A stretch of 16,678 bases of DNA, from NCBI GenBank assembly GCA_964632315.1, contig CAZWEM010000068.1, forward strand, positions 1 to 16,678. Direction: 5' to 3'. The translations under genes and the position numbers were made by a program. This document shows, piece by piece, positions 1 through 15,261 of this stretch (positions are counted from its first letter, which is position 1; the number at the start of each line of letters is the position of its first letter). The notes beneath the pieces are model-generated. The model did not search any database and was not told the DNA's origin. It worked only from the letters and a program-made list of their open reading frames with translations. This DNA is from an uncultured archaeon (lineage in GTDB: Archaea > Asgardarchaeota > Lokiarchaeia > Sigyniarchaeales > SOKP01).

Positions 1-1291
1 ATGAACAACAGCCCTTAAAACATTGCTGGCATACTCTACATCCCATTGCGATCAAAACTGGCATTGAACACATCGTGACATCGGCACCTAAGGCTATGGC
101 TTTTATCAAATCTGCAGAATATCGAATTGAACCTCCAGCTATTAAAGTGACTTCTTCTCTTAGGTTTTCTTCCCTTAACCTTTTATCAACAGCAGCAATG
201 GCCAATTCAATTGGAATACCCGCATGATCTCGGATGATTCTTGGAGCTGCACCCGTTCCGCCTCTAAATCCATCTAATGTTATGAAATCTGCTCCACCTC
301 GTGCTATGCCTACAGCAATTGGTGCCGAGTTATGAACTGCTGCGATTTTTACACCTATGGGGACCTTATATCTGGTCGCCTCTTTTAATGCAGCAATTAA
401 TTGAGCTAGATCTTCAATTGAATAGATATCGTGATGAGGATAAGGAGATAATGCGTCGCTCCCTATGGGTATCATTCTTGTTTCAGAGATCAAACTGCTC
501 ACTTTCTCTCCAGGTAAATGACCACCATGGCCTGGTTTTGCTCCTTGACCAATTTTAATTTCTATTCCCGCTGCATAATGGAGGTAATTAATGTCAACTC
601 CAAATCGTCCTGATGCGACTTCAGTAATGAGATTTGGGGCATATTCATAGAAATCGGGGTGTAATCCCCCCTCTCCTGAGCCCGCTATTATATTCAATTC
701 TTTAGCAGCTTGATAAATGGCTTGACAAGCATTATAACTGATAGATCCTAAACTCATGTGCCCAATCATCATTGGCATATCGATTTCAATATTAGGATTT
801 ATAGTTGTCTTTAAAGAGATACTATTTAAGTCCTCATATTTAATTTCAAAATCGAGTCGTTTTGGTTTCCGTCCTAAAAAGACCTTAGTTTCAATAGCTT
901 CCCTCAAGGGATCGATACTAGGATTTGTTACTTGGCAAGCATCAAGGAGTAAGTCATCAAATATTGATCTAATTGGCCTATCATTACCAGTCGCTGAAAG
1001 TAACACTCCTCCGATACCTGATTGAGCCCAAATTATATTACGGATCATTTTTGTATAATTACCATGAGGAGGGAGGTAAGATTCGTTCTTAGAAATATGA
1101 ATAGCCTTCCCAGGGCACATTACAACGCATCTTTGGCAAGCGACGCATTTTTCATCTTCAGCAATTATTTGATCTCCATTAAAAGAGAAGACATCATAAG
1201 TGCAATTATTGATGCATCTCTTGCATTTTTTACAAGCCTCTCGATTAATATTCACTTTATAATTTGCAACTAATTCATGGGTTAACGCCAT
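1..1291 (-). CDS. gltB2: Archaeal-type glutamate synthase FMN-binding subunit (GltB2) with N-terminal 2x[4Fe-4S] ferredoxin domain; 3' end truncated by the window edge
   Basis: Not in the ORF track because there is no stop inside the window. Manual translation from ATG at 1291 gives MALTHELVANYKVNINREACKKCKRCINNC...CVACQRCVVMCP...DACQVTNPSIDPLRE...HMSLGSIS...GSGEGG...EVASGRFGV...IEIKIGQGAKPGHGGHLPGEKV...SPYPHHDIYSIEDLAQLI...LDGFRGGTGAAP...KAIALGAD...GCRVCQQCFKGCC. These are the diagnostic GOGAT synthase-domain and [3Fe-4S] motifs. GGAGGTG RBS lies within the last codons of gltB1. Confidence 0.95.
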   Translation of the reverse strand, partial: MALTHELVANYKVNINREACKKCKRCINNCTYDVFSFNGDQIIAEDEKCVACQRCVVMCPGKAIHISKNESYLPPHGNYTKMIRNIIWAQSGIGGVLLSATGNDRPIRSIFDDLLLDACQVTNPSIDPLREAIETKVFLGRKPKRLDFEIKYEDLNSISLKTTINPNIEIDMPMMIGHMSLGSISYNACQAIYQAAKELNIIAGSGEGGLHPDFYEYAPNLITEVASGRFGVDINYLHYAAGIEIKIGQGAKPGHGGHLPGEKVSSLISETRMIPIGSDALSPYPHHDIYSIEDLAQLIAALKEATRYKVPIGVKIAAVHNSAPIAVGIARGGADFITLDGFRGGTGAAPRIIRDHAGIPIELAIAAVDKRLREENLREEVTLIAGGSIRYSADLIKAIALGADVTMCSMPVLIAMGCRVCQQCFKGCCS

Positions 1292-2485
1292 TTAGCACAC
1301 CTCCATCAGTGTTTCGTAATTTATGTTTTTACGTTCTCCAATTCCATCACTTAGCAATCCCTTGCCTAATTCAGCAATAACAGCTGTACCACTTTTAGGA
1401 TGCCATATCTTTTTTAGATCTAATTTATAATGATCAATACTCAATTTTCTGAAAGATGCTTCCTCACTGCTCATGTAGACAGTGTTTTCATCATCAGATA
1501 TTCCAACCACTAAAGGACGTAACTTTTTTCGATCAGTTAGTCCGATCATCGTGGGATTAGGATTTGAAAGACCAACTACAATTGAAAACGGACCATTTAA
1601 CATGGCACTTCTATAGGTAGCCCTCACGAACTTGAATATATTCTGCGATTGTTCATCTAATTTATCGATCTCCTCATATAATGAAGGGGCTAAAGCAAAA
1701 CCAGCAATCGATAGTGGAATCTCATGTCTACGACAAAGAAGATCAAACAAATATGCGATTACTTCTGTATCGGTAGATAACGTGCATTCGTATCCAAAAG
1801 ATTCCAAGAACCTTCTATTCGTTCCGTATGAAGTTATTTCCCCATTATGCACAACCGAGCAATTTAAAAGATTAAATGGGTGGGCTCCCCCCCACCAACC
1901 CGGAGTATTTGTTGGAAACCTAGAATGAGCTAACCACATGTAAGCATCATACTCTGAGACTCTATAATACTCTGCAATCTCATGTGACCAGCCATTTCCT
2001 TTAAACACTCCCATGTTTTTTCCCGAGGACATTACAAACGCATTTTTTATATTTGCATTGATATGCATCACGCTTTGAACTATTTTTTCATCATGACTCC
2101 TAAAGTCTTCACCCTTAGGTTTAAAAAATATCCTCCACGTTATCGGTGGATTTTCTACATTACTTGGAATTTTGGTAGGGATTGGTTCAGATTGGACGAT
2201 ATGGCCACGTTTTTTAAGATATTCCACAACTTGAGCCTTTGCATTTTGATCTTCAAAGAGAAAATGAAAAGCATAGTAATCCTTATATTTTGGATAGATG
2301 CCATATGCAGCATAACCTGCTCCAAGCCCATTCTCTCTTTCTTTTAAAATACAGAGCATGTCAACAACTTTTTGACCAGAAACTTTAGTACCATCAATGT
2401 TAATGAATCCAGAAATTCCACAACCATCAAAAACTCGTTGATTCCTAAATTTTTCGGGCAAAGAAGTATAATCTGTCCATCTCAT
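1292..2485 (-). CDS. gltB1: Glutamate synthase glutamine amidotransferase subunit (class II/Ntn GATase, GltB1)
   Basis: DG|CGISG nucleophile Cys22 after a 21-aa leader; ERENGLGAGYA, SSGKNMGVFKG, AHSRFPTNTPGWWGGAHPF, VHNGEITSY, TDTEV, LNGPF, DRKKLRP motifs; stop abuts the gltB2 start (TAA-ATG). Confidence 0.92.
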   Translation of the reverse strand: MRWTDYTSLPEKFRNQRVFDGCGISGFINIDGTKVSGQKVVDMLCILKERENGLGAGYAAYGIYPKYKDYYAFHFLFEDQNAKAQVVEYLKKRGHIVQSEPIPTKIPSNVENPPITWRIFFKPKGEDFRSHDEKIVQSVMHINANIKNAFVMSSGKNMGVFKGNGWSHEIAEYYRVSEYDAYMWLAHSRFPTNTPGWWGGAHPFNLLNCSVVHNGEITSYGTNRRFLESFGYECTLSTDTEVIAYLFDLLCRRHEIPLSIAGFALAPSLYEEIDKLDEQSQNIFKFVRATYRSAMLNGPFSIVVGLSNPNPTMIGLTDRKKLRPLVVGISDDENTVYMSSEEASFRKLSIDHYKLDLKKIWHPKSGTAVIAELGKGLLSDGIGERKNINYETLMEVC

Positions 2486-2492
2486 AAAAGAA

Positions 2493-3851
2493 TCACTCCT
2501 CTATTGATTGGGAATTAATCTCCGTGTTTTTTGATTCTATTAGATTAAATAATTCTTTCAAATCGCTCACATTTGGTTCAAAATCCTCTAAATTAACTCT
2601 TTTACGGGCAGATTTTGATATCACTCCTATAATCCCTTTTTGAAGAAATGAATTAAATTCAGATTCATAACCCTTAGTTACATGACCTTGTTTAGTAGCT
2701 AAATTTCTTAATATCGTAAATATTTCTATGTATCCTACTCCTAAGGGACAGAGCTCGTAACATAGGTAGCAATCAAGACACATCCAAATAGAAGGATCTG
2801 AGATCGCTTCACTAATCTTCCCTTGAAGAATACTGCTAATGATCTTATTTGGACTGAATTCTGTCATTTTAGAAAGAAGGCAATCATCCTCACATGCTCT
2901 ACATGCGTGGCACTTAATCAAGAAAGAGAGATTAAAATTTTGTTGAATCTGCAAATTTTTTTCTTGGATAGTTGATATCTTTTCAAATAATGAATTGACA
3001 TTGGTCCTATGGTATTTTCTAATGATTTCTTGGATATCAATTCCTAATGCAATGCATAATAATTCGGAGTAATATAAAACAGGTATATCGAATTGAAATC
3101 CTTGTTTTTTCAATTCTCGTTGTTGGTGATCGAATTGGATATAACATTGAGGGCAGCACACAACAATGCAATCCACGTCAGTTTTATTTATACTACTCAA
3201 TTTAGCTTTTATCATCTCTAAAGCCAAGCTTGGCTTTCCTGCTCTTTCAAGGCTTCCTCCACAACACTCCATTTTTAAATCATATTCTATACCTTCAGCC
3301 CCAAGATCCCTTATTAAATCATCAAACAAGGTGGGTTTTAAAGGATCATCTAATTGTAATTTATTGCTTGGCCTAAGAAAATGACATCCATAATGAACTG
3401 CTACTCTTAACCCAGTCAGAGGAAATTTAAGATTATTCTTTATAGCTTCCCTGCTGAATTTAAAGAAAAATTCAACGAAATGATAAACTTGGGAAGTGCC
3501 TTGAACCTCTAAATCTATTTTATTTAAATAATTGTTTAATTTTCTCCGAAAATGATGATCTTCTTCGATTTCACATCGTGTCTTTTTTAGAGTTGTATAA
3601 CAACCATTACAAGGGGTAATTAAATCTTGATTTTTTGATTCAGCTAATGCTAGATTCCGGGCTGCAGTCAAGTAATATAATAATTTATTCGAGTTCTTTA
3701 TTCCGTTTGGATCTGGGCAGCATGAGAATCTTGAATCATTACTATATGAGATCTCAAGACTTTCTAAGACTTTTCTTACTGACACCTCAATAAAAGGAAG
3801 TCTATAAGATATGACACATCCCGGGAAGAAAGCAACTTGATCTTGAAACAT
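2493..3851 (-). CDS. hdrBC: Heterodisulfide reductase subunit B-subunit C fusion protein (two CCG domains plus 2x[4Fe-4S] HdrC-like domain)
   Basis: CCG1 is C12-x31-C44C45-x35-C81xxC84 (FFPGC, SCCP, AARNL, PCNGC). CCG2 is VAVHYGCHFLRPS...ECCGG...CCPQCYIQFD...IPVLYYSELL. The C-terminal domain has CHACRACEDDC and IWMCLDCYLCYELCP, typical of HdrC. Confidence 0.9.
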   Translation of the reverse strand: MFQDQVAFFPGCVISYRLPFIEVSVRKVLESLEISYSNDSRFSCCPDPNGIKNSNKLLYYLTAARNLALAESKNQDLITPCNGCYTTLKKTRCEIEEDHHFRRKLNNYLNKIDLEVQGTSQVYHFVEFFFKFSREAIKNNLKFPLTGLRVAVHYGCHFLRPSNKLQLDDPLKPTLFDDLIRDLGAEGIEYDLKMECCGGSLERAGKPSLALEMIKAKLSSINKTDVDCIVVCCPQCYIQFDHQQRELKKQGFQFDIPVLYYSELLCIALGIDIQEIIRKYHRTNVNSLFEKISTIQEKNLQIQQNFNLSFLIKCHACRACEDDCLLSKMTEFSPNKIISSILQGKISEAISDPSIWMCLDCYLCYELCPLGVGYIEIFTILRNLATKQGHVTKGYESEFNSFLQKGIIGVISKSARKRVNLEDFEPNVSDLKELFNLIESKNTEINSQSIEE

Positions 3852-3869
3852 CGGTTAACCAACAATATT

Positions 3870-3887
3870 GTGGGACTAGCATCCCAC
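3870..3887. promoter_or_regulatory. Palindromic candidate operator GTGGGA-N6-TCCCAC upstream of the hdrBC-gltB operon
   Basis: Perfect 6-bp GC-rich arms in an otherwise AT-rich region, 19-36 bp upstream of the hdrBC ATG and just downstream of TATA-like boxes on the minus strand (~3895-3908 and 3921-3928). Confidence 0.5.
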
Positions 3888-4256
3888 TAAACAATTTTAT
3901 AATATAATTAACAAAGTGAACTTATAAGCATTGTTATATCAAAAATTATCTGGATTTCATTCATTTTTTTACTGATATTGCTAAAAAAAATTCAATTGTA
4001 TCAAAGATCTTATTTAAAAAGAGAAGCGGAAACTAAAAATTGTTCAAAATTCAAGCCGACGAAATTCGATCTTCCTTGGTGTTAAATATCCATCCGTTAA
4101 GATTTGGCTAGGAATTTTTCAATCTCTTTTAGAAGAATAATCTCACATAACCATATTGCACGAAATTCGCTTAAAACGCTTTCAACAATAATAAAATAGC
4201 TAAATGCATAGATAAAATAATGCTTACTCTCATAATATTAGGAATACAAGGCTTCT

Positions 4257-4394
4257 ATGCTCAATTTTAGACAAACCGCTGGAAGTGTTAAAATTAAAGG
4301 GAAAAAGAGGAAGTGCAAAAATTGTGGTTGTAAGGCTTCAATATTCATCAAGGATAATGAAAGTTATAATAAAAAAGGGTTAAAGACCCCATAA
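4257..4394 (+). CDS. Possible 45-aa basic micro-ORF or gene remnant with one CxxCG knuckle
   Basis: MLNFRQTAGSVKIKGKKRKCKNCGCKASIFIKDNESYNKKGLKTP*; below the ORF-track cutoff; no clear RBS. Confidence 0.2.
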   Translation: MLNFRQTAGSVKIKGKKRKCKNCGCKASIFIKDNESYNKKGLKTP

Positions 4395-4540
4395 CTTGAA
4401 ATATAAATATAAAAATTGATTTATGTAGGTTTAAAGCTAAGGAGAGTCTCTTATTTACAAATATTTATAATAATTTTAGAAATGTGATTCTCTAAGCCTT
4501 AAGCCACAAGATTTCGGATTTGACCTAGCATTTTCCTAGC

Positions 4541-4622
4541 GGTTTTGTAAAAATGAACTTAGATGGGGTGTAGTCTCATTTAAGTGTCCCACTTGAACAG
4601 TGTTTGTTAAATTCACAAAACT
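4541..4622 (+). other. Candidate structured non-coding element (nested stems)
   Basis: 12-bp stem 4557-4568/4574-4585 with three G-U pairs, enclosed by an 8-bp stem 4541-4548/4615-4622. Confidence 0.3.
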
Positions 4623-4855
4623 TTGTAACTCAATCATTAATTGATAGAATTACTAAAAAAAATTCAATAAAATAGATAAGGAAATTCAATAATAGTGATA
4701 ATTTCTTTAAAAAGTAAAAAAATCATATATAAAGGGTAGGAGGGTGCCAATTTTCTAATTTATTATATCTATTTTATGAAAATTTAATTTGAGAATTTCA
4801 TTATATAACCAATCATGTAATTAATTTGATAGATAATGATTTAAGGGTTTATCCT

Positions 4856-4900
4856 TTAAGACTTGACGGGGAATCTCTTAAGATACTTGACGATGGAAAT
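4856..4900 (+). repeat. Imperfect direct repeat TTAAG(AT)ACTTGACG x2, 24-bp spacing
   Basis: ACTTGACG at 4861-4868 and 4885-4892, each preceded by TTAAG and followed by a GGAA-containing tail; ~80-110 bp upstream of the 4970 start. Confidence 0.5.
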
Positions 4901-4969
4901 ATTTTAATAAAATCCAAACTATTTATTCAATGTATTGCTATATTATAAATGTGTTAAAGAAGGAGGGTT

Positions 4970-5458
4970 GTGAAAATTAAAATAAACATTAATCATAAGG
5001 CTTTGGACCCCATAGATCGAAGTTATGATATTGGGATTGAGATAAGTGGAAATGGAACAGAGAAGAACCCAAAATTTATAAATTTTGATGATCTTATTGA
5101 AAAGCATTTATTTACAGTCGAGATTCATGATTCAGAATCTTTTTTAAGCCTTAAATTACGAGATTTCGGGAATCTTAGATTTTTAAACTCAAAAAATATC
5201 ACGATTCAAAACTCTCAATTAATTGAGTTAACCTTTATGGGTTGTGAAAATGTGGTCTTAAACGTAATAAACACTGATTACATTAAAATTGAAAATTGTA
5301 GAAACTTGACGCTTTTAAGTGGTAAGGTGAGATATGTTCATGTTATCGCAAGTTTCAATATCAAAATTGCGAATTCGACCATTCAGAAATTAGTCAGAGA
5401 GAGAAATACGGACTTGAAAATAGAGACTTCGATGATTGAGAAAACAAAATTAAAATAG
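4970..5458 (+). CDS. Small parallel beta-helix/solenoid repeat protein (paralog A)
   Basis: AGGAGG RBS before GTG; GNGTEKNP cap motif; five consecutive 18-aa coils (LRFLNSKNITIQNSQLIE / LTFMGCENVVLNVINTDY / IKIENCRNLTLLSGKVRY / VHVIASFNIKIANSTIQK / LVRERNTDLKIETSMIEK); no signal peptide or TM segment. Confidence 0.8.
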   Translation: MKIKININHKALDPIDRSYDIGIEISGNGTEKNPKFINFDDLIEKHLFTVEIHDSESFLSLKLRDFGNLRFLNSKNITIQNSQLIELTFMGCENVVLNVINTDYIKIENCRNLTLLSGKVRYVHVIASFNIKIANSTIQKLVRERNTDLKIETSMIEKTKLK

Positions 5459-5578
5459 GATTTTGAATAAATCAGTTATTTTAAACAATTCAATCCTTTA
5501 ATATGGCAGTATGTTTAAATATTAAAGTTAGGAATTTGAATATTAAGCTCTTTATATCAAATAAGCAGGGGTACCATT

Positions 5579-6088
5579 ATGAAAATCCATATTGAAAATG
5601 AACCGAAATTTTCTCTTTTAGCGCTAGGAGGGATAAATTTTGATTTAGTGTGGGAATATGAACTAGTTGGAATAGGATCTCTAGATGAACCTTTTGTTGT
5701 TAAACCAACCAATCAAAACGGGAATTTATTTTCCATAAGCATTGTAGATTCTAATCGGTTTCACATTTTATTGAATAGTTTAAAAATGGTAGGCTTAATT
5801 CTCAAAAATTGTAGAAATATCTTTATTCAGGATTCGCAATTAGTTTATTTACGATTAATTGACTGTGAAAAAATTAAAATCCAATCTGTAAGAATTAAAA
5901 AGATGTGCAAAATAGTAAGTTCTAAAGAAATTAATGTCTCAAATTTGATCTGTAAGAAAATGTATTTAAAAAATGGAGTTGAAATAAACGTTTCTTCTAG
6001 TCATATCTCTCGGTTATATGAAAAAGAAGAAAATGGGGTTTTATTTAGAGATAGCATTATTAAGAAAGTCAAAGAATGGGAATATTAA
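5579..6088 (+). CDS. Small parallel beta-helix/solenoid repeat protein (paralog B)
   Basis: Colinear with paralog A (MKI-I start, GIGSLDEPF cap, LFSISIVDS, NCRNIFIQDSQL); five 18-19-aa coils. Confidence 0.8.
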   Translation: MKIHIENEPKFSLLALGGINFDLVWEYELVGIGSLDEPFVVKPTNQNGNLFSISIVDSNRFHILLNSLKMVGLILKNCRNIFIQDSQLVYLRLIDCEKIKIQSVRIKKMCKIVSSKEINVSNLICKKMYLKNGVEINVSSSHISRLYEKEENGVLFRDSIIKKVKEWEY

Positions 6089-6477: not shown

Positions 6478-6942
6478 TTACTTAATAAGCTTCCCTAGCG
6501 AACTTTCTTCCTTTATAACATTTAGGATTAAATGCGTATTAGTTCGCTCTACTTCAGGATACTTGTGCATCTCTTTAATCATTGCACTTAATTCGGAACG
6601 GTCCTTAAAGCGAGCAAGAATAAGGGCATCATAGGTTCCGGTGATGTCATACACTGCAAATACATTTGGATTTTCCGCGACCTTTTTCTCCATTTCGATC
6701 ATCTTACCTTTTGACGTTGTTAGTTCAATTACCGCCACAATCGTGAACCCAACTTTTTCATAATCGATTGTAGCTCCATAATTTTTAATGATACCTGAGT
6801 CTTCTAATTCGCTTACATGCCTTTTTATAGTCACTGGGGACTTATCGAGCTTTTTAGAAATACTGTGATATGTTTCACGTCCATCTTGTCCTAAAATTTT
6901 TAAAATTTCAAAATCAATATCTTCTAAATTCTTTTCATTCAT
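6478..6942 (-). CDS. Lrp/AsnC family transcriptional regulator
   Basis: N-terminal HTH (IDFEILKILGQDGRETYHSISKKLDKSPVTIKRHVSELEDSGII) and RAM domain (VYDITGTYDALILARFKD...VERTNTHLILNVIKE). Confidence 0.95.
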   Translation of the reverse strand: MNEKNLEDIDFEILKILGQDGRETYHSISKKLDKSPVTIKRHVSELEDSGIIKNYGATIDYEKVGFTIVAVIELTTSKGKMIEMEKKVAENPNVFAVYDITGTYDALILARFKDRSELSAMIKEMHKYPEVERTNTHLILNVIKEESSLGKLIK

Positions 6943-9188: not shown

Positions 9189-10712
9189 TTGAATGAATTT
9201 GTAAATATAATCCCATATCCAGTAAACGTGAAATATGACGAAGGTTATTTCACATTATCTGACGAGATTGATATTCAATTTGATGAAGACTTCGTAAAAG
9301 AGGCAAATTATCTGAAAAATTTTACCAAGAAGTATCTTAAGATTAATTTTGGATTACCTCAATCTTCCTCTACGAATGATAAATTAATACAAATAATTCT
9401 ATCAGATGAGAACATCCCCTCTGAAGGATATTTACTAAATATAAAGAGTGATTCCATCCAAATTAAAGCAAAAACATCTAAGGGAGCATTCTATGGAATA
9501 CAATCATTAATTCAATTACTAATTAGGGACAGCAAAATTTCTTGTGCTAAAATTATTGATTATCCCCGTTTTGGCTGGCGTGGATTCATGTTGGACGAAG
9601 CCAGACATTTTTTTGGCATAGAAGAAGTCAAGAAACTAATAGATGTCATGGCTCTATATAAATTCAACATTTTTCATTGGCATCTTACAGACGACCAGGG
9701 TTGGAGAATCGAAATTGATGAGTTTCCCTTGTTGAATGAAATTAGTTCAAAAAGGAAAGGTACTTCAAAAGGCTCTAGAAAATTAATGGCTGATTTAGAT
9801 GGAGGCAATAAAAGCCTTAATGGCGTTCCTGTCTCAGGCTTATATACAAAAAGTCAGATTAAAGAATTAATTCGTTATGCGAAAGATCGATTTATCACCA
9901 TTATTCCCGAAGTAGATTTTCCAGGACATGTTCAGGCAGTCCTTGCAGCTTATCCCGAATTAAGTTGTACAGGCGGTCCATTTGAGGTAAGTGTAAAATT
10001 TGGAGTCCATAAGGATGTTTTCTGCATAGGAAAAGAAAAAGTTTTTGATTTTTCTGAGAAAATTTTTAAGGAAATCATCTCATTATTTCCCTCCAAAATC
10101 ATTCATGCTGGCGGGGATGAGGTCCCAATTAGAAGATATAAAAGTTGTCCCGATTGCCAAGCTTTAATGAAAAAAGAACAAATGACTGATGAAAAACTGT
10201 TACAACCATACTTTACTACCAGGATGGCAAAATTTTTGGAAAAAAATAATCGGATCTTGATGGGATGGAACGAAATACTTAACGATAATCTTCCCGAAAA
10301 AGTGATTTCTCAATTTTGGGCAGGAGATTTCAATATCGCTGTAGATCATATTAAAAAAGGAAGAAAAACTGTCATGTCAGATATGAGATTCGTTTACCTG
10401 AATTATCCATCCAAACTTACCCTAATTTCGAAGACGTACGATTATGAACCAATTCCTGAAAATCTTAATCTGAAGTATCACAAAAATATTCTAGGGATCG
10501 AAGCATGTTTGTGGACTGAATATGTTCCAGGTATCAATACGCTAGAATATCAAGTGTTCCCAAGGTTGATTGCAGTAGCAGAAACAGGATGGACATTAAA
10601 AGAAAATAAAAATTACCACTCATTCGAACAAAGATTGCCGTTTTCATTAGGAATGCTTGAAAAAATGAATGTAATGTATGCAAAATCAGATGAATACGAC
10701 ATACAATATTAA
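9189..10712 (+). CDS. Beta-N-acetylhexosaminidase, glycoside hydrolase family 20 (no signal peptide)
   Basis: IIPYP, EGYLL, GAFYGIQSL, DYPRFGWRGFMLDEARHF, HWHLTDDQGWR, IIPEVDFPGH, catalytic HAGGDE, GWNE, GIEACLWTEY, FPRLIAVAETGW; TTG start. Confidence 0.95.
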   Translation: MNEFVNIIPYPVNVKYDEGYFTLSDEIDIQFDEDFVKEANYLKNFTKKYLKINFGLPQSSSTNDKLIQIILSDENIPSEGYLLNIKSDSIQIKAKTSKGAFYGIQSLIQLLIRDSKISCAKIIDYPRFGWRGFMLDEARHFFGIEEVKKLIDVMALYKFNIFHWHLTDDQGWRIEIDEFPLLNEISSKRKGTSKGSRKLMADLDGGNKSLNGVPVSGLYTKSQIKELIRYAKDRFITIIPEVDFPGHVQAVLAAYPELSCTGGPFEVSVKFGVHKDVFCIGKEKVFDFSEKIFKEIISLFPSKIIHAGGDEVPIRRYKSCPDCQALMKKEQMTDEKLLQPYFTTRMAKFLEKNNRILMGWNEILNDNLPEKVISQFWAGDFNIAVDHIKKGRKTVMSDMRFVYLNYPSKLTLISKTYDYEPIPENLNLKYHKNILGIEACLWTEYVPGINTLEYQVFPRLIAVAETGWTLKENKNYHSFEQRLPFSLGMLEKMNVMYAKSDEYDIQY

Positions 10713-11832: not shown

Positions 11833-14800
11833 TTAATTTGTTTTGATCTTTTTCGAATTCCTCCAGCTTAAACCGACCATCCCCACGATTGCTAAAAAGA
11901 AAATTAACATTACATTAGGTCCTGGTATAAAAATTGGAGTATTACTAGGGGTACTTTTATAAATAATGACTGTATCAGAACCAAGATTTCCAGCAGTATC
12001 GTTTGCATAAAATGTGATTGTAACTGGTCCATTTGGCAAGTCATTCCATAGTTCTTCATCTATAATACCAGCATATACGGTAATTACAGAATTTACTCCA
12101 TTATTCAATGTATACCATACTGTATGAAGATTGTCCTCTATAACATCGATATCATAAAGAGGAACGTAAGTAGTATATTCATCTCCTGTATTGGGTACGT
12201 TGATGACTACATTAGGTGCTGCTACATCTTTTTGAACTATTATTTGAACTGAACCAAGATTTCCTGATGTATCATTAGCGAAGAACCTAATTATTATTTG
12301 ACCATCTGGAAGGGTATTCCAGATTAATTCGTCTAGCGTGCCAGTATTGCTCGTGATAATAATATTATTCAAACCACCATCCATAGTATACCACATTGTA
12401 TCCAAATTGTCTTCAAGAATGGAAATTTCATACAATGGTACAGAATCACTAAAAGTTTCGCCGTTAATTGGAGTGTTTACAGAAATAATTGGTGGTATGG
12501 AATCATTTGGTCCATCGTCAAATATCGGATAATCGTCATAGCTTCCTGCTAATCCTTCAATCAAATAAGGAGTATCTCCTATCCCATCATCATTGAGATC
12601 TTCTCCAGAATAATCATCCCACGAATTCCCTATAGTTCCATTATCCCATTCATTTAAAGTTCCATTATCTTTTGCGTTAAGGCCATTCCCAGTAAAAAAA
12701 TTTAAGTATAAAGTATTTTGATTGGCCTCGTAATCAAGAAGAATACCTATTATTTCATTTTCGAGAATTTGATTATTTAATACCTTTGTCTCGTCAACTG
12801 CTAAAAGAACGATCCCATAACCTGAATTATGATACACGTAGTTGTCTTTTATAATATTATTACTTGAGAAAATAATTCCCACACCATATTGATTTTCGAT
12901 TAAATCATTATTAAGAATCATAGATGTAAAACTATACCAAGAATAAATCCCAAGTCCATATTGATAGATAGTATTTTGAGTTAAAATCGAATTATTGCTA
13001 TACATGAGACTAATTGCATAACTATAAACGCTAGGGGTTGGATCCATTAGTTCATTAAGTGATATTGTATTATTATGAGAGTAGGATAAGCTAATTCCTC
13101 TAGGTGTTGTAATGGAATCAACATTCAAAATTCTATTATAAGTGATTTCATTGTTATGGCTATTATTCAACCAAATCCCAATATCATTAACATCATAAAT
13201 TGTGTTATTGTAAACCAACGAATTATTTGTGGATATAAGAGAGACTCCGTAGAGCGTGTTATGAATAGTACAATTTTCAATCTTAAAGTACACGTTAGAA
13301 TTACGTATTTCAATTCCGTTATAGATGCCTCCACCGTCGATCTCGAGATCTTTTATGATATAAGGATCATTCAAGGTACCAACTCCTGTACACCACTCAT
13401 TTTCGAATGCTGTTTTGGTCCAGTTAAAATTAGAATCGAGATCATCGATGTAGATTCTATAGGGTGGAGAGCTAAGCTGTGAAACCCATTCGCAAGGATA
13501 GAAATATAGCTTATTTAATGCATTATATGGAAAATTTGTCAGATTATTACTATGAGCGTATACAATTTTGGTATGATAAAGGGGAATATGATTGAAGCTT
13601 TGAGTTGCCATATAGCTTTGAATGTGCTTGTAAATAGTATCTCTGGCTACCAGATCAGTCTCTGTTAAAGCAGCTGCCATTAAAGCATTTAAGGTAGGAT
13701 CATTGACTTGAGCAGAGTTTGATCCGGAGATAGGATTAAACAATGGATCAAGCATGTTGTAAGGTTCAAGATAATCAGGGGCCCATCCAATAACGTACAA
13801 TTCTAAATGATCAAATCCTTGATCTGGAGTACCTCCACCAACATCGTAGAGATAATCCAAAAATTGATCCCATTGGACGCCATCGTCTTCAGTGGCACAA
13901 CCGATTAATTTAAGCCATACCGTAACTGCAACGTACAAATCTTCTCTAAAAGTATTCCCGAGGTTATATGTATAACGAACTGTTTTGAACGGAGCACTAG
14001 CTGCTTGATCTATCCAATCTTGGTCAACATTTACATCTAATCCAACTCCATAACCCATGGATTGCAGGGTTTCTCGAGCAACAACAACATTTCCCTCGTC
14101 GGGTACAGCTCTAGGATCAATAGATACAGATGCATTATATGCCGCACCAAAAGCAGGTGAGATGGCAGTATAAGATCTTAAGGCATTTCCTAATCGTAAT
14201 TCTTCAATTACGTAGGAATAGTTCACAGCAAAAGCGAATGCTTTTCTCCAAGTTGTGTTATATTTATGGTTATTAACACCCATGTATTGATAAACTAAAC
14301 TTGGTTTACCTGTTTCATCAGTAAAATCCTTCACATAAATATGAGGGATCGTTCTATATGTTGCTATATTTTGATCAGTCGCTAAAAGATTCCAGTCGAT
14401 TTGATTATTGAGAAATGCTTGATGAGCGTTGTTTGCATCATCAAAAATGACATAAGTCATTTGGCTTATGTTTGCGGTTCCTTGCCAGTAATTTCCAAAT
14501 GCGTGGAAACTAACGAGTATATTCGGAGTATAGCCATCATACACAAAAGGGCCAGTACCACAAACGTTTCCAGAGAGAGGGATGAAAGTTTGAGCATCAG
14601 CAGCGTGGAACGTGGGTGAGATCATCCCTGCGTTGATATAAGTCAATGTATTTAAAAATGGAGCATATGCACCATTCAGGGTAATAGTGATGTTATATTC
14701 ACTATTTACAACAACATTGTTCATTATAGGGGTTACTCCATCAGGGAAACTCCATAAAGATTTCGTTTGTGCTACTGTACCATGATTATCTCCAGTAGCG

Positions 14801-15261
14801 TTTATAAGGAAATTCAGTCTGTCTAAATTCCACTTTGCAGCAGCGGCATTAAATGGTGTACCATCATGGAATAGAACTCCTTCCCGTAGTTTTATCTGCA
14901 GTGCAGTCATATTTATCCAGTAGTATGATTCGGCAAGTTGATTAACTAAAGGTAAATCTAAATCTGACAAATTATTCGTGAAAAGCGTCTCAACCACTTG
15001 TTCGAGCACGTTGTTAGAGGCACTATCCCAAGAATCAACTATTTCCAATGTATGAGGCCCTGAAGATGTCCCAACGCTAAATGGTCGATACTGCTGACTG
15101 GTTTTCACCTTTAAGTTATCCTCATCGAGCTTACCACCATTTTGGCCATAAATCTTTGCTGCATTAATTCTATTAGTTTTATGGAGCACTATTATGGAAC
15201 TTGTAATTAAGATAAAAACAAAAATTAGATAAGTGTATTTTAATTTTTTTATTTTTGTCAT
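11833..15261 (-). CDS. Membrane-anchored multidomain surface protein: family-5 (Dpp/Opp-like) solute-binding domain, NosD/CASH beta-helix, two Ig-like repeats, Loki-CTERM-like anchor
   Basis: N-terminal basic plus hydrophobic signal; SBP5 motifs KLREGVLFHDGTPFNA, CGTGPF, YWQG, RKAFAFAVNY, GWAPDYLEPYNML; GVGTLNDPYII cap followed by ~22-aa GIxLxxSxNNxIxxN coils; GNSWDDYSGEDLNDDGIGDTPY; two ~91-aa repeats; C-terminal IPGPN-TM-RNSKKIK. Confidence 0.9.
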   Translation of the reverse strand: MTKIKKLKYTYLIFVFILITSSIIVLHKTNRINAAKIYGQNGGKLDEDNLKVKTSQQYRPFSVGTSSGPHTLEIVDSWDSASNNVLEQVVETLFTNNLSDLDLPLVNQLAESYYWINMTALQIKLREGVLFHDGTPFNAAAAKWNLDRLNFLINATGDNHGTVAQTKSLWSFPDGVTPIMNNVVVNSEYNITITLNGAYAPFLNTLTYINAGMISPTFHAADAQTFIPLSGNVCGTGPFVYDGYTPNILVSFHAFGNYWQGTANISQMTYVIFDDANNAHQAFLNNQIDWNLLATDQNIATYRTIPHIYVKDFTDETGKPSLVYQYMGVNNHKYNTTWRKAFAFAVNYSYVIEELRLGNALRSYTAISPAFGAAYNASVSIDPRAVPDEGNVVVARETLQSMGYGVGLDVNVDQDWIDQAASAPFKTVRYTYNLGNTFREDLYVAVTVWLKLIGCATEDDGVQWDQFLDYLYDVGGGTPDQGFDHLELYVIGWAPDYLEPYNMLDPLFNPISGSNSAQVNDPTLNALMAAALTETDLVARDTIYKHIQSYMATQSFNHIPLYHTKIVYAHSNNLTNFPYNALNKLYFYPCEWVSQLSSPPYRIYIDDLDSNFNWTKTAFENEWCTGVGTLNDPYIIKDLEIDGGGIYNGIEIRNSNVYFKIENCTIHNTLYGVSLISTNNSLVYNNTIYDVNDIGIWLNNSHNNEITYNRILNVDSITTPRGISLSYSHNNTISLNELMDPTPSVYSYAISLMYSNNSILTQNTIYQYGLGIYSWYSFTSMILNNDLIENQYGVGIIFSSNNIIKDNYVYHNSGYGIVLLAVDETKVLNNQILENEIIGILLDYEANQNTLYLNFFTGNGLNAKDNGTLNEWDNGTIGNSWDDYSGEDLNDDGIGDTPYLIEGLAGSYDDYPIFDDGPNDSIPPIISVNTPINGETFSDSVPLYEISILEDNLDTMWYTMDGGLNNIIITSNTGTLDELIWNTLPDGQIIIRFFANDTSGNLGSVQIIVQKDVAAPNVVINVPNTGDEYTTYVPLYDIDVIEDNLHTVWYTLNNGVNSVITVYAGIIDEELWNDLPNGPVTITFYANDTAGNLGSDTVIIYKSTPSNTPIFIPGPNVMLIFFLAIVGMVGLSWRNSKKIKTN
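11956..12504 (-). repeat. Two tandem ~91-aa Ig-like (Big) domain repeats within the surface protein
   Basis: DSIPPIISVNTP...VPLYEISILEDNLDTMWYTMDGG...FFANDTSGNLGS versus DVAAPNVVINVP...VPLYDIDVIEDNLHTVWYTLNNG...FYANDTAGNLGS. Confidence 0.85.

Follow-up and report, generated by a model that had tools for sequence, protein, structure and literature searches.

What supplies electrons to split glutamate synthases of the archaeal type, and on which substrates HdrB proteins act outside methanogens, are two questions that meet in one operon of an uncultured Lokiarchaeia archaeon (Sigyniarchaeales, assembly GCA_964632315.1). The stretch analysed, hereafter the window, spans the entire contig CAZWEM010000068.1 (16,678 nucleotides) of this 4.4 Mb genome. 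At one end it carries hdrBC, a single gene in which hdrB and hdrC are fused in B-then-C order, followed by the synthase genes gltB1 and gltB2. Comparison of the sequences leads us to favour the view that hdrBC-gltB1-gltB2-gltB3 encodes a biosynthetic, glutamine-dependent glutamate synthase fed by HdrB-HdrC, with a dihydrolipoyl protein as the probable source of electrons. This view draws on the constant linkage of hdrBC to gltB1, the place of the fusion among alternative donor modules, its intact cluster cysteines and its co-occurrence with lipoyl carriers. Both questions are testable here with four to six small soluble proteins.

Organization of the hdrBC-gltB operon

The three genes are open reading frames (ORFs) on the minus strand, with intergenic gaps of 7 bp and 0 bp. 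The next ORF upstream of hdrBC starts at position 4970 on the opposite strand, 1118 bp away. An earlier note on this DNA had described co-oriented genes with these gaps, motifs resembling ribosome-binding sites in the last codons of each upstream gene, and hdrBC as the first gene after a gap of 1.1 kb. The same ORF coordinates and motifs were recovered, and the arrangement is confirmed. The features are:

2493-3851, minus strand: hdrBC, hdrB-hdrC fusion, 452 amino acids (aa), first gene of the operon; two CCG domains and an HdrC-type dicluster domain; proposed electron-input subunit
2976-3851, minus strand: HdrB domain, aa 1-292, two CCG repeats
2538-2939, minus strand: HdrC domain, aa 305-438, two [4Fe-4S] motifs beginning at C314 and C358
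2493-2501, minus strand: putative Shine-Dalgarno-like motif for gltB1, GAGGAGTGA, formed by the last two hdrBC codons and the stop codon
1292-2485, minus strand: gltB1, class II glutamine amidotransferase subunit, 397 aa
1298-1304, minus strand: putative Shine-Dalgarno-like motif for gltB2, GGAGGTG, within the final gltB1 codons
2-1291, minus strand: gltB2, 430 aa, open at the window edge; N-terminal ferredoxin domain and Glu_synthase flavin mononucleotide (FMN) domain

Domain matches agree with the identities first given to the three genes. The hdrBC product matches the structures of HdrB in 8RVU (E 6e-62) and HdrC in 5ODC (E 5e-15), and its HdrB domain contains two sets of five cysteines (C12, C44, C45, C81, C84 and C156, C196, C197, C233, C236) as well as H157 and R17. 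In GltB1 the nucleophile Cys22 follows a short propeptide and the conserved motifs downstream are intact. GltB2 combines a 2x[4Fe-4S] ferredoxin domain (at about 1097-1258) with an FMN synthase domain (PF01645, 375 bits) whose motifs at aa 244, 271, 313, 344 and 418, comprising substrate lysines and arginine and the Fe-S cluster motif, are intact. The contig end interrupts GltB2 at residue 430 of 506, as judged from the full-length protein of a relative (L416, 506 aa; L and G numbers denote loci and genomes), which is 98% identical over the 430 aa present here.

Since the window is the whole contig, the genes left of it, which the earlier note had wished to see, are absent from this assembly, and gltB3 was not found in it. 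In relatives whose fusions share 95% and 85% identity with this one, gltB3 is the last gene of the unit, and in one of them (L418) a convergent gene follows gltB3, so that the operon comprises four genes. None of gltD, frhB, hdrA, mvhD or a pyridine-nucleotide oxidoreductase gene occurs in the four-gene unit of the closest relatives, and no gltD, frhB or pyridine-nucleotide oxidoreductase gene was present in the unit across 20 Asgard loci.

Conservation and phylogeny of the cassette

A survey of hdrBC-gltB1-gltB2 synteny, proposed beforehand as a check, showed that the adjacency is not unique to this genome. Across 301 genomes of the phylum, all 24 full-length fusions directly precede gltB1 and end within ~35 bp of it. 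Among 80 metagenome loci retrieved with the fusion as the only query, gltB1 is the next gene in 70, i.e. in every locus that permits the test, and the other ten end within 300 bp of the fusion gene. The link from hdrBC to gltB1 is near-obligate and far beyond chance. The reverse link is looser: 8 of the 33 split gltB1 loci in the phylum are without the fusion, some of them without any partner gene. Outside the Asgard archaea, the cassette is found in Ca. Methanoperedens (32 of the family's 41 genomes), in Actinomycetota (69 of 151 genomes of one class), in Eubacteriales and in Nitrospirota, the last with hdrB and hdrC as separate genes in unchanged order.

In a first tree calculated from HdrB only, the linked copies fell into two groups with open forks. 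The addition of HdrC resolved them into a single clade, as the earlier note had proposed to check for glt-linked copies: all 34 B-then-C sequences lie on one side of a branch with a Shimodaira-Hasegawa-like approximate likelihood ratio (SH-aLRT) support of 99, in a tree calculated under a quick model with 20 outgroup rows and with segments cut by query similarity. This branch spans Asgard archaea, Methanoperedens and bacteria, and the other HdrB copies of this genome, seven in number, lie outside it. A literature search, with most subscription journals outside its coverage, found no description of a pairing between HdrBC and a split glutamate synthase, in line with the claim that no system with this wiring had been reported. 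The cassette is thus real, widespread and apparently undescribed.

Often a divergent second Glu_synthase-domain gene of ~549 aa with a cysteine-rich N-terminus adjoins the cassette (L168:13134-14780; L177, L180, L184, L194).

HdrBC as probable electron-input subunit

Split synthases are encoded with different donor modules. Putative F420-dependent split synthases with an FrhB partner (FGltS) have been proposed (PMC9012536). Among 33 loci retrieved here with GltB2 as the only query, 17 encode a ferredoxin plus a pyridine-nucleotide oxidoreductase, three an FrhB-like protein, one a GltD-like fusion and three HdrBC, and about a quarter of the other split synthases are without a nearby donor gene. 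No locus among the 33 carries two types of donor module; one genome (G071) has two cassettes, one with HdrBC and the other with the oxidoreductase. Alternative electron-input modules would be expected to exclude each other per locus in this way, and HdrBC is probably a dedicated, HdrA-independent input subunit of the glutamate synthase.

The ten cluster cysteines and H157 are invariant across 145 linked copies, which indicates that thiol chemistry was kept. The structural model of an orthologue (G012; predicted local distance difference test score 92) superimposes on HdrB chains with a template modelling (TM) score of 0.93. Coenzyme M (CoM) and coenzyme B (CoB) are contacted in 5ODR by Gly46, Gly198, Arg14, Arg201, Arg240 and Phe233 (PMC13261682). 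In the window protein the equivalents of Arg14 and Arg201 are kept as R17 and R203 (conserved in 144/145 and 118/145 linked copies, respectively), the other four contacts are replaced by Asn49, Ser200, His242 and Gln235, and both the glycine-rich loops and Phe233 are lost. The fusion branch has conserved residues of its own (K52, L201), and this genome also encodes three HdrB paralogues that keep the methanogen CoM/CoB signature. The fused protein has the HdrB fold and both five-cysteine CCG motifs, with family scores below the curated cut-offs for CoB-CoM heterodisulfide reductase subunits (TIGR03288, 256 of 345 bits; TIGR03290, 66 of 160) and likewise for TfrB (NF004898, 70 bits, cut-off 385). 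Synteny, separate branch, donor slot and intact catalytic cysteines together uphold the part of the earlier interpretation in which a dedicated HdrBC ties glutamate synthase to thiol/disulfide chemistry; its two further suggestions, an HdrA arm and a sink for glutamate oxidation, are not supported (see below).

We infer that HdrBC and the GltB subunits form a complex in which the HdrB domain would run in the thiol-oxidising direction. Its two non-cubane clusters would oxidise a dithiol, most likely the dihydrolipoyl group on a small carrier of GcvH type or on a free lipoyl carrier, and single electrons would pass through the two HdrC clusters and the GltB2 ferredoxin domain to FMN. The flavin would then reduce 2-iminoglutarate formed from 2-oxoglutarate and the ammonia released by GltB1, and dihydrolipoamide dehydrogenase (Lpd) could re-reduce the lipoyl carrier with NADH. 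No HdrA would be needed in this scheme.

Lipoyl proteins as candidate electron donors

The identity proposed for the thiol draws on gene clusters in other lineages. An operon of Eubacteriales (L422-L424) has the order gltB1-gltB2-gltB3-lpd-lipB-lipA-lipoyl domain-hdrBC, and its Lpd, LipB and LipA exceed their family cut-offs. At L428 a fusion of a LipA-type radical SAM protein with a lipoyl domain lies 15 bp before hdrBC, at L197 and L202 lpd and a gene for a 78-aa lipoyl protein precede hdrBC-gltB, and the operon run at L398 and L399 includes lplA and a gcvH-like gene. In the order of Methanoperedens a GcvH-type carrier is found in 45/45 cassette carriers vs 11/145 non-carriers, and in the actinobacterial class in 69/69 vs 10/82, so that the two surveys together give 114 of 114 carriers. 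Within the Methanoperedens family, GcvH-type proteins occur in 39 of 41 genomes and GcvP in 4 of 41.

In this Lokiarchaeia genome the lipoyl genes all lie in trans. The lysine motif is present in each of three GcvH-type proteins, Lpd scores over its family cut-off, and lipoylation would fall to two LplA-type ligases and a LipS-type pair; an E2-type lipoyl domain was not found in the genome. On these sequence grounds, a lipoyl protein acting in trans is somewhat favoured as donor of HdrBC in this organism.

Several further gene clusters concern lipoyl proteins. One cluster of this genome (L259 and L364, G000:C99) groups lplA with genes for a ferredoxin, a cysteine-rich protein of 132 aa and a DGC-GcvH fusion (298 aa, lysine motif kept); this fusion is a candidate carrier. 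Paired stand-alone GcvH-like genes without glycine cleavage P/T genes, some with lipS-type genes and lplA, occur in the order of Methanoperedens (L339-L348, L400, L409, L415). A canonical CoM/CoB-type hdrC-hdrB pair and an hdrA-mvhD fusion stand in one run with the cassette in Methanoperedens relatives (L398, L399, L401, L402, L408, L411, L413, L414, L426), and this run often includes lplA, glnA, amt and PII genes; a link between heterodisulfide pool and lipoyl relay is possible there.

Direction and energetics

The NADPH-dependent glutamate synthase reaction amounts to -50 kJ/mol, from which the potential of the glutamine plus 2-oxoglutarate half-reaction was estimated at ~ -0.06 V. The potential of dihydrolipoamide is -0.29 V (PMC6067878), and that of CoM/CoB is -138 mV, revised to -281 mV (PMC12054007). 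With the acceptor potential thus estimated, synthesis is computed to be downhill by ~44 kJ/mol with dihydrolipoamide; for CoM/CoB thiols the figure ranges from 16 to 43 kJ/mol according to which potential is taken. Therefore synthesis is favoured with these thiols, and glutamate oxidation is not. Thiol-driven synthesis had been discounted earlier as less favourable than NADPH-driven synthesis; dihydrolipoamide costs only a few kJ/mol more, and this option is now the best supported. Genomic context points the same way: glnA is a neighbour at 8 of 20 Asgard cassettes and at roughly one in four metagenome loci, amt and PII genes are present at several, and this genome encodes glnA together with four glutamate dehydrogenase homologues. 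From energetics and context we infer the biosynthetic direction.

Alternative explanations

The proposal that HdrBC forms the high-potential arm of an HdrA bifurcating complex would require an HdrA encoded elsewhere, with which HdrBC would make up a bifurcating or simple flavin-fed complex feeding GltB. At least eight full-length HdrA matches exist in this genome, several without hdrBC of their own, and a hdrC-hdrB-hdrA(mvhD) unit lies in or beside the operon in Methanoperedens relatives. Such a neighbouring hdrA, however, is always accompanied by its own canonical hdrC and hdrB in genomes from that order, and the cassette unit itself contains neither hdrA nor mvhD. When six candidates were scored per genome of the actinobacterial class, HdrA appeared in 11 of 151 genomes, including just 7 of the 69 carriers; 62 carriers show none, carriage and HdrA are not associated (Fisher p 0.35, with kin not independent), and no HdrA was found in the Nitrospirota carrier genome. 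HdrA is not required in general, the bifurcating arm is not borne out, and pairing in trans is improbable. Similarly doubtful is the idea that GltB1-3 is a plain ferredoxin-dependent synthase and HdrBC, without catalytic transfer to it, an accessory under common regulation that serves as redox switch, in disulfide repair or in Fe-S supply. It would suit the ferredoxin domain of GltB2, the split gltB1 loci of the phylum that do without the fusion or any partner, and the donorless quarter of other split synthases. It sits badly with a fusion that excludes other donor modules and never occurs without an adjoining synthase gene where the contig permits the test (L428 is cut by a contig end), and the complete Lpd-lipoyl supply chain in cis suggests stoichiometric flux. 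Very unlikely is a CCG protein serving as an SdhE-like membrane anchor that draws on quinol: the SdhE model matches below threshold (149 bits, cut-off 500) and HdrB models score much higher (256 bits). The same holds for glt genes of an MgsABC-like N-methylglutamate synthase, which is also a three-gene GltB homologue (PMC6237917); B1-B2-B3 order, ferredoxin-fused B2 and glnA/amt linkage fit an archaeal-type glutamate synthase, and the loci read contained no methylamine genes.

The same architecture might instead take its electrons from a pair of low-molecular-weight thiols, which in methane oxidisers would be CoM-SH/CoB-SH and in Asgard archaea and bacteria another thiol. This would account for the retention of R17, the counterpart of the CoB-binding Arg14 of 5ODR, and largely of R203, for Asgard cassettes without an adjoining lipoyl gene, and would be favourable at both published CoM/CoB potentials. 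It is nonetheless unlikely, given the loss of the glycine-rich CoM loops, Phe233 and Arg240, and the lipoyl genes in cis in several lineages. The operons at L398, L401 and L408 also hold a separate canonical CoM/CoB-type HdrB, which the fused HdrB is unlikely to duplicate, and the bacterial carriers are not known to make CoM or CoB. Hardly probable at all is operation in reverse, which had also been suggested and in which the system would take up electrons from glutamate oxidised by an amino-acid fermenter. Lokiarchaeia ferment amino acids and an Lrp/AsnC gene lies nearby; yet the glutaminase subunit is intact, reversal of glutamine-dependent synthesis would be uphill by an estimated 16-44 kJ/mol, many lineages, methane oxidisers among them, have glnA, amt and PII genes next to the cassette, and the four glutamate dehydrogenase homologues are available for catabolism.

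Several observations weigh against a lipoyl-fed HdrBC as input subunit of the synthase. The close relatives G003, G252 and G027 keep gltB1-B3 without the fusion, which is hence dispensable or replaceable there, and G016 retains a mere remnant of the HdrC 3' end before gltB1 (L128:12156-12341), an indication of recent loss. Many HdrA and GltD-like genes of this genome could act in trans. The co-occurrence counts were taken across kin and overstate independence, so that Fisher tests on them cannot be taken at face value. None of the 20 Asgard loci has a lipoyl gene near the cassette, and GcvH and Lpd serve elsewhere, in glycine cleavage here and in a 2-oxoacid dehydrogenase operon in Methanoperedens. 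The operons with lipoyl genes in cis belong to a sister branch with ~38% identity, which makes the carrier the weakest mechanistic step for this genome.

Upstream region and neighbouring genes

Two further features lie upstream of the operon:

3852-4969, no strand assigned: AT-rich gap, presumed promoter region
6478-6942, minus strand: Lrp/AsnC regulator, candidate regulator of the operon, found near the cassette in several relatives

An 18-bp palindrome (3870-3887; perfect 6-bp inverted repeat, 6-nt spacer) ends 18 nt before the hdrBC start. It resembles an NrpR box and was rejected as such; similar motifs number ~30 in the genome, it is not conserved in relatives, and NrpR was not found. At L418 the Lrp/AsnC gene lies ~650 bp upstream of the cassette. 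Two plus-strand ORFs of the window (4970-6088; 162 and 169 aa) have no Pfam match, and no ORFs of that size and orientation were called between the Lrp gene and hdrBC at L418, which marks this stretch as variable.

The window copy of hdrBC starts with ATG. In 24 of 35 close relatives (L133-L151, L178-L192, L198) no ATG, GTG or TTG precedes the conserved N-terminus, and nearly all of these have ATT at a fixed position, ~8 nt past a Shine-Dalgarno-like motif. This ATT is possibly a non-canonical start that limits or regulates translation. Elsewhere in the window, a GH20 beta-N-acetylhexosaminidase gene (9189-10712) converges with a thioesterase gene with an overlap of 4 bp, as at L418-L420, and a 1142-aa protein (11833-15261) joins a family 5 solute-binding domain to NosD-like beta-helix repeats.

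Significance and comparison with known systems

The chances appear evenly balanced that the cassette represents a fourth and widespread class of glutamate synthase, in which dihydrolipoate bound to protein supplies the driving electrons by way of HdrB-HdrC and independently of HdrA. If so, lipoate would gain a role as anabolic electron carrier, HdrB of a non-methanogen would obtain its first defined substrate, and the stand-alone GcvH-like proteins of anaerobic methane oxidisers would be explained. Asgard archaea, anaerobic methane oxidisers and many uncultured bacteria would assimilate ammonia by a thiol relay. Thousands of annotations as CoB-CoM heterodisulfide reductase would be wrong, which matters wherever hdrB is taken as a signal of methane or bifurcation metabolism.

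NAD(P)H-dependent (GltBD) and ferredoxin-dependent glutamate synthases share the glutaminase, FMN and 2-oxoglutarate motifs with the present system; here three genes replace the single-chain GltB and the unit has no GltD. The archaeal-type split GltB1/B2/B3 synthase is alike in its three-gene GltB, the ferredoxin-FMN fusion, the glnA/amt context and the donor gene within the operon, and unlike in that the HdrB-HdrC fusion takes the place of FrhB, GltD or ferredoxin plus NAD(P)H oxidoreductase. With methanogen HdrABC (5ODC, 7BKB, 8RVU) the system has in common the fold (TM 0.93), the ten cluster cysteines, the histidine, the first arginine and the two HdrC cubanes. It differs in the B-then-C fusion, scores below the cut-offs, changed CoM/CoB loops, the absence of HdrA and MvhD from the unit and the separate branch.

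In sHdr-LbpA sulfur oxidation, Hdr-like subunits act with lipoate-binding proteins and Lpd (PMC6067878, PMC11094781). That pathway is catabolic, needs sHdrA and sulfur transferases and is proposed to reduce lipoamide, whereas here lipoyl would donate electrons for nitrogen assimilation; none of the shdrC1B1AHC2B2, lbpA and sulfur transferase genes is present in the cassette unit. In the thiol:fumarate reductase TfrAB of methanogens, a CCG module oxidises CoM-SH/CoB-SH for an anabolic flavoenzyme without HdrA. TfrB has its ferredoxin parts first, an order reversed in the window, its acceptor is fumarate, and the window protein falls outside the TfrB/HdrD family; the likeness lies in a thiol-oxidising CCG module that drives an anabolic flavoenzyme independently of HdrA, as is proposed here for glutamate synthase.

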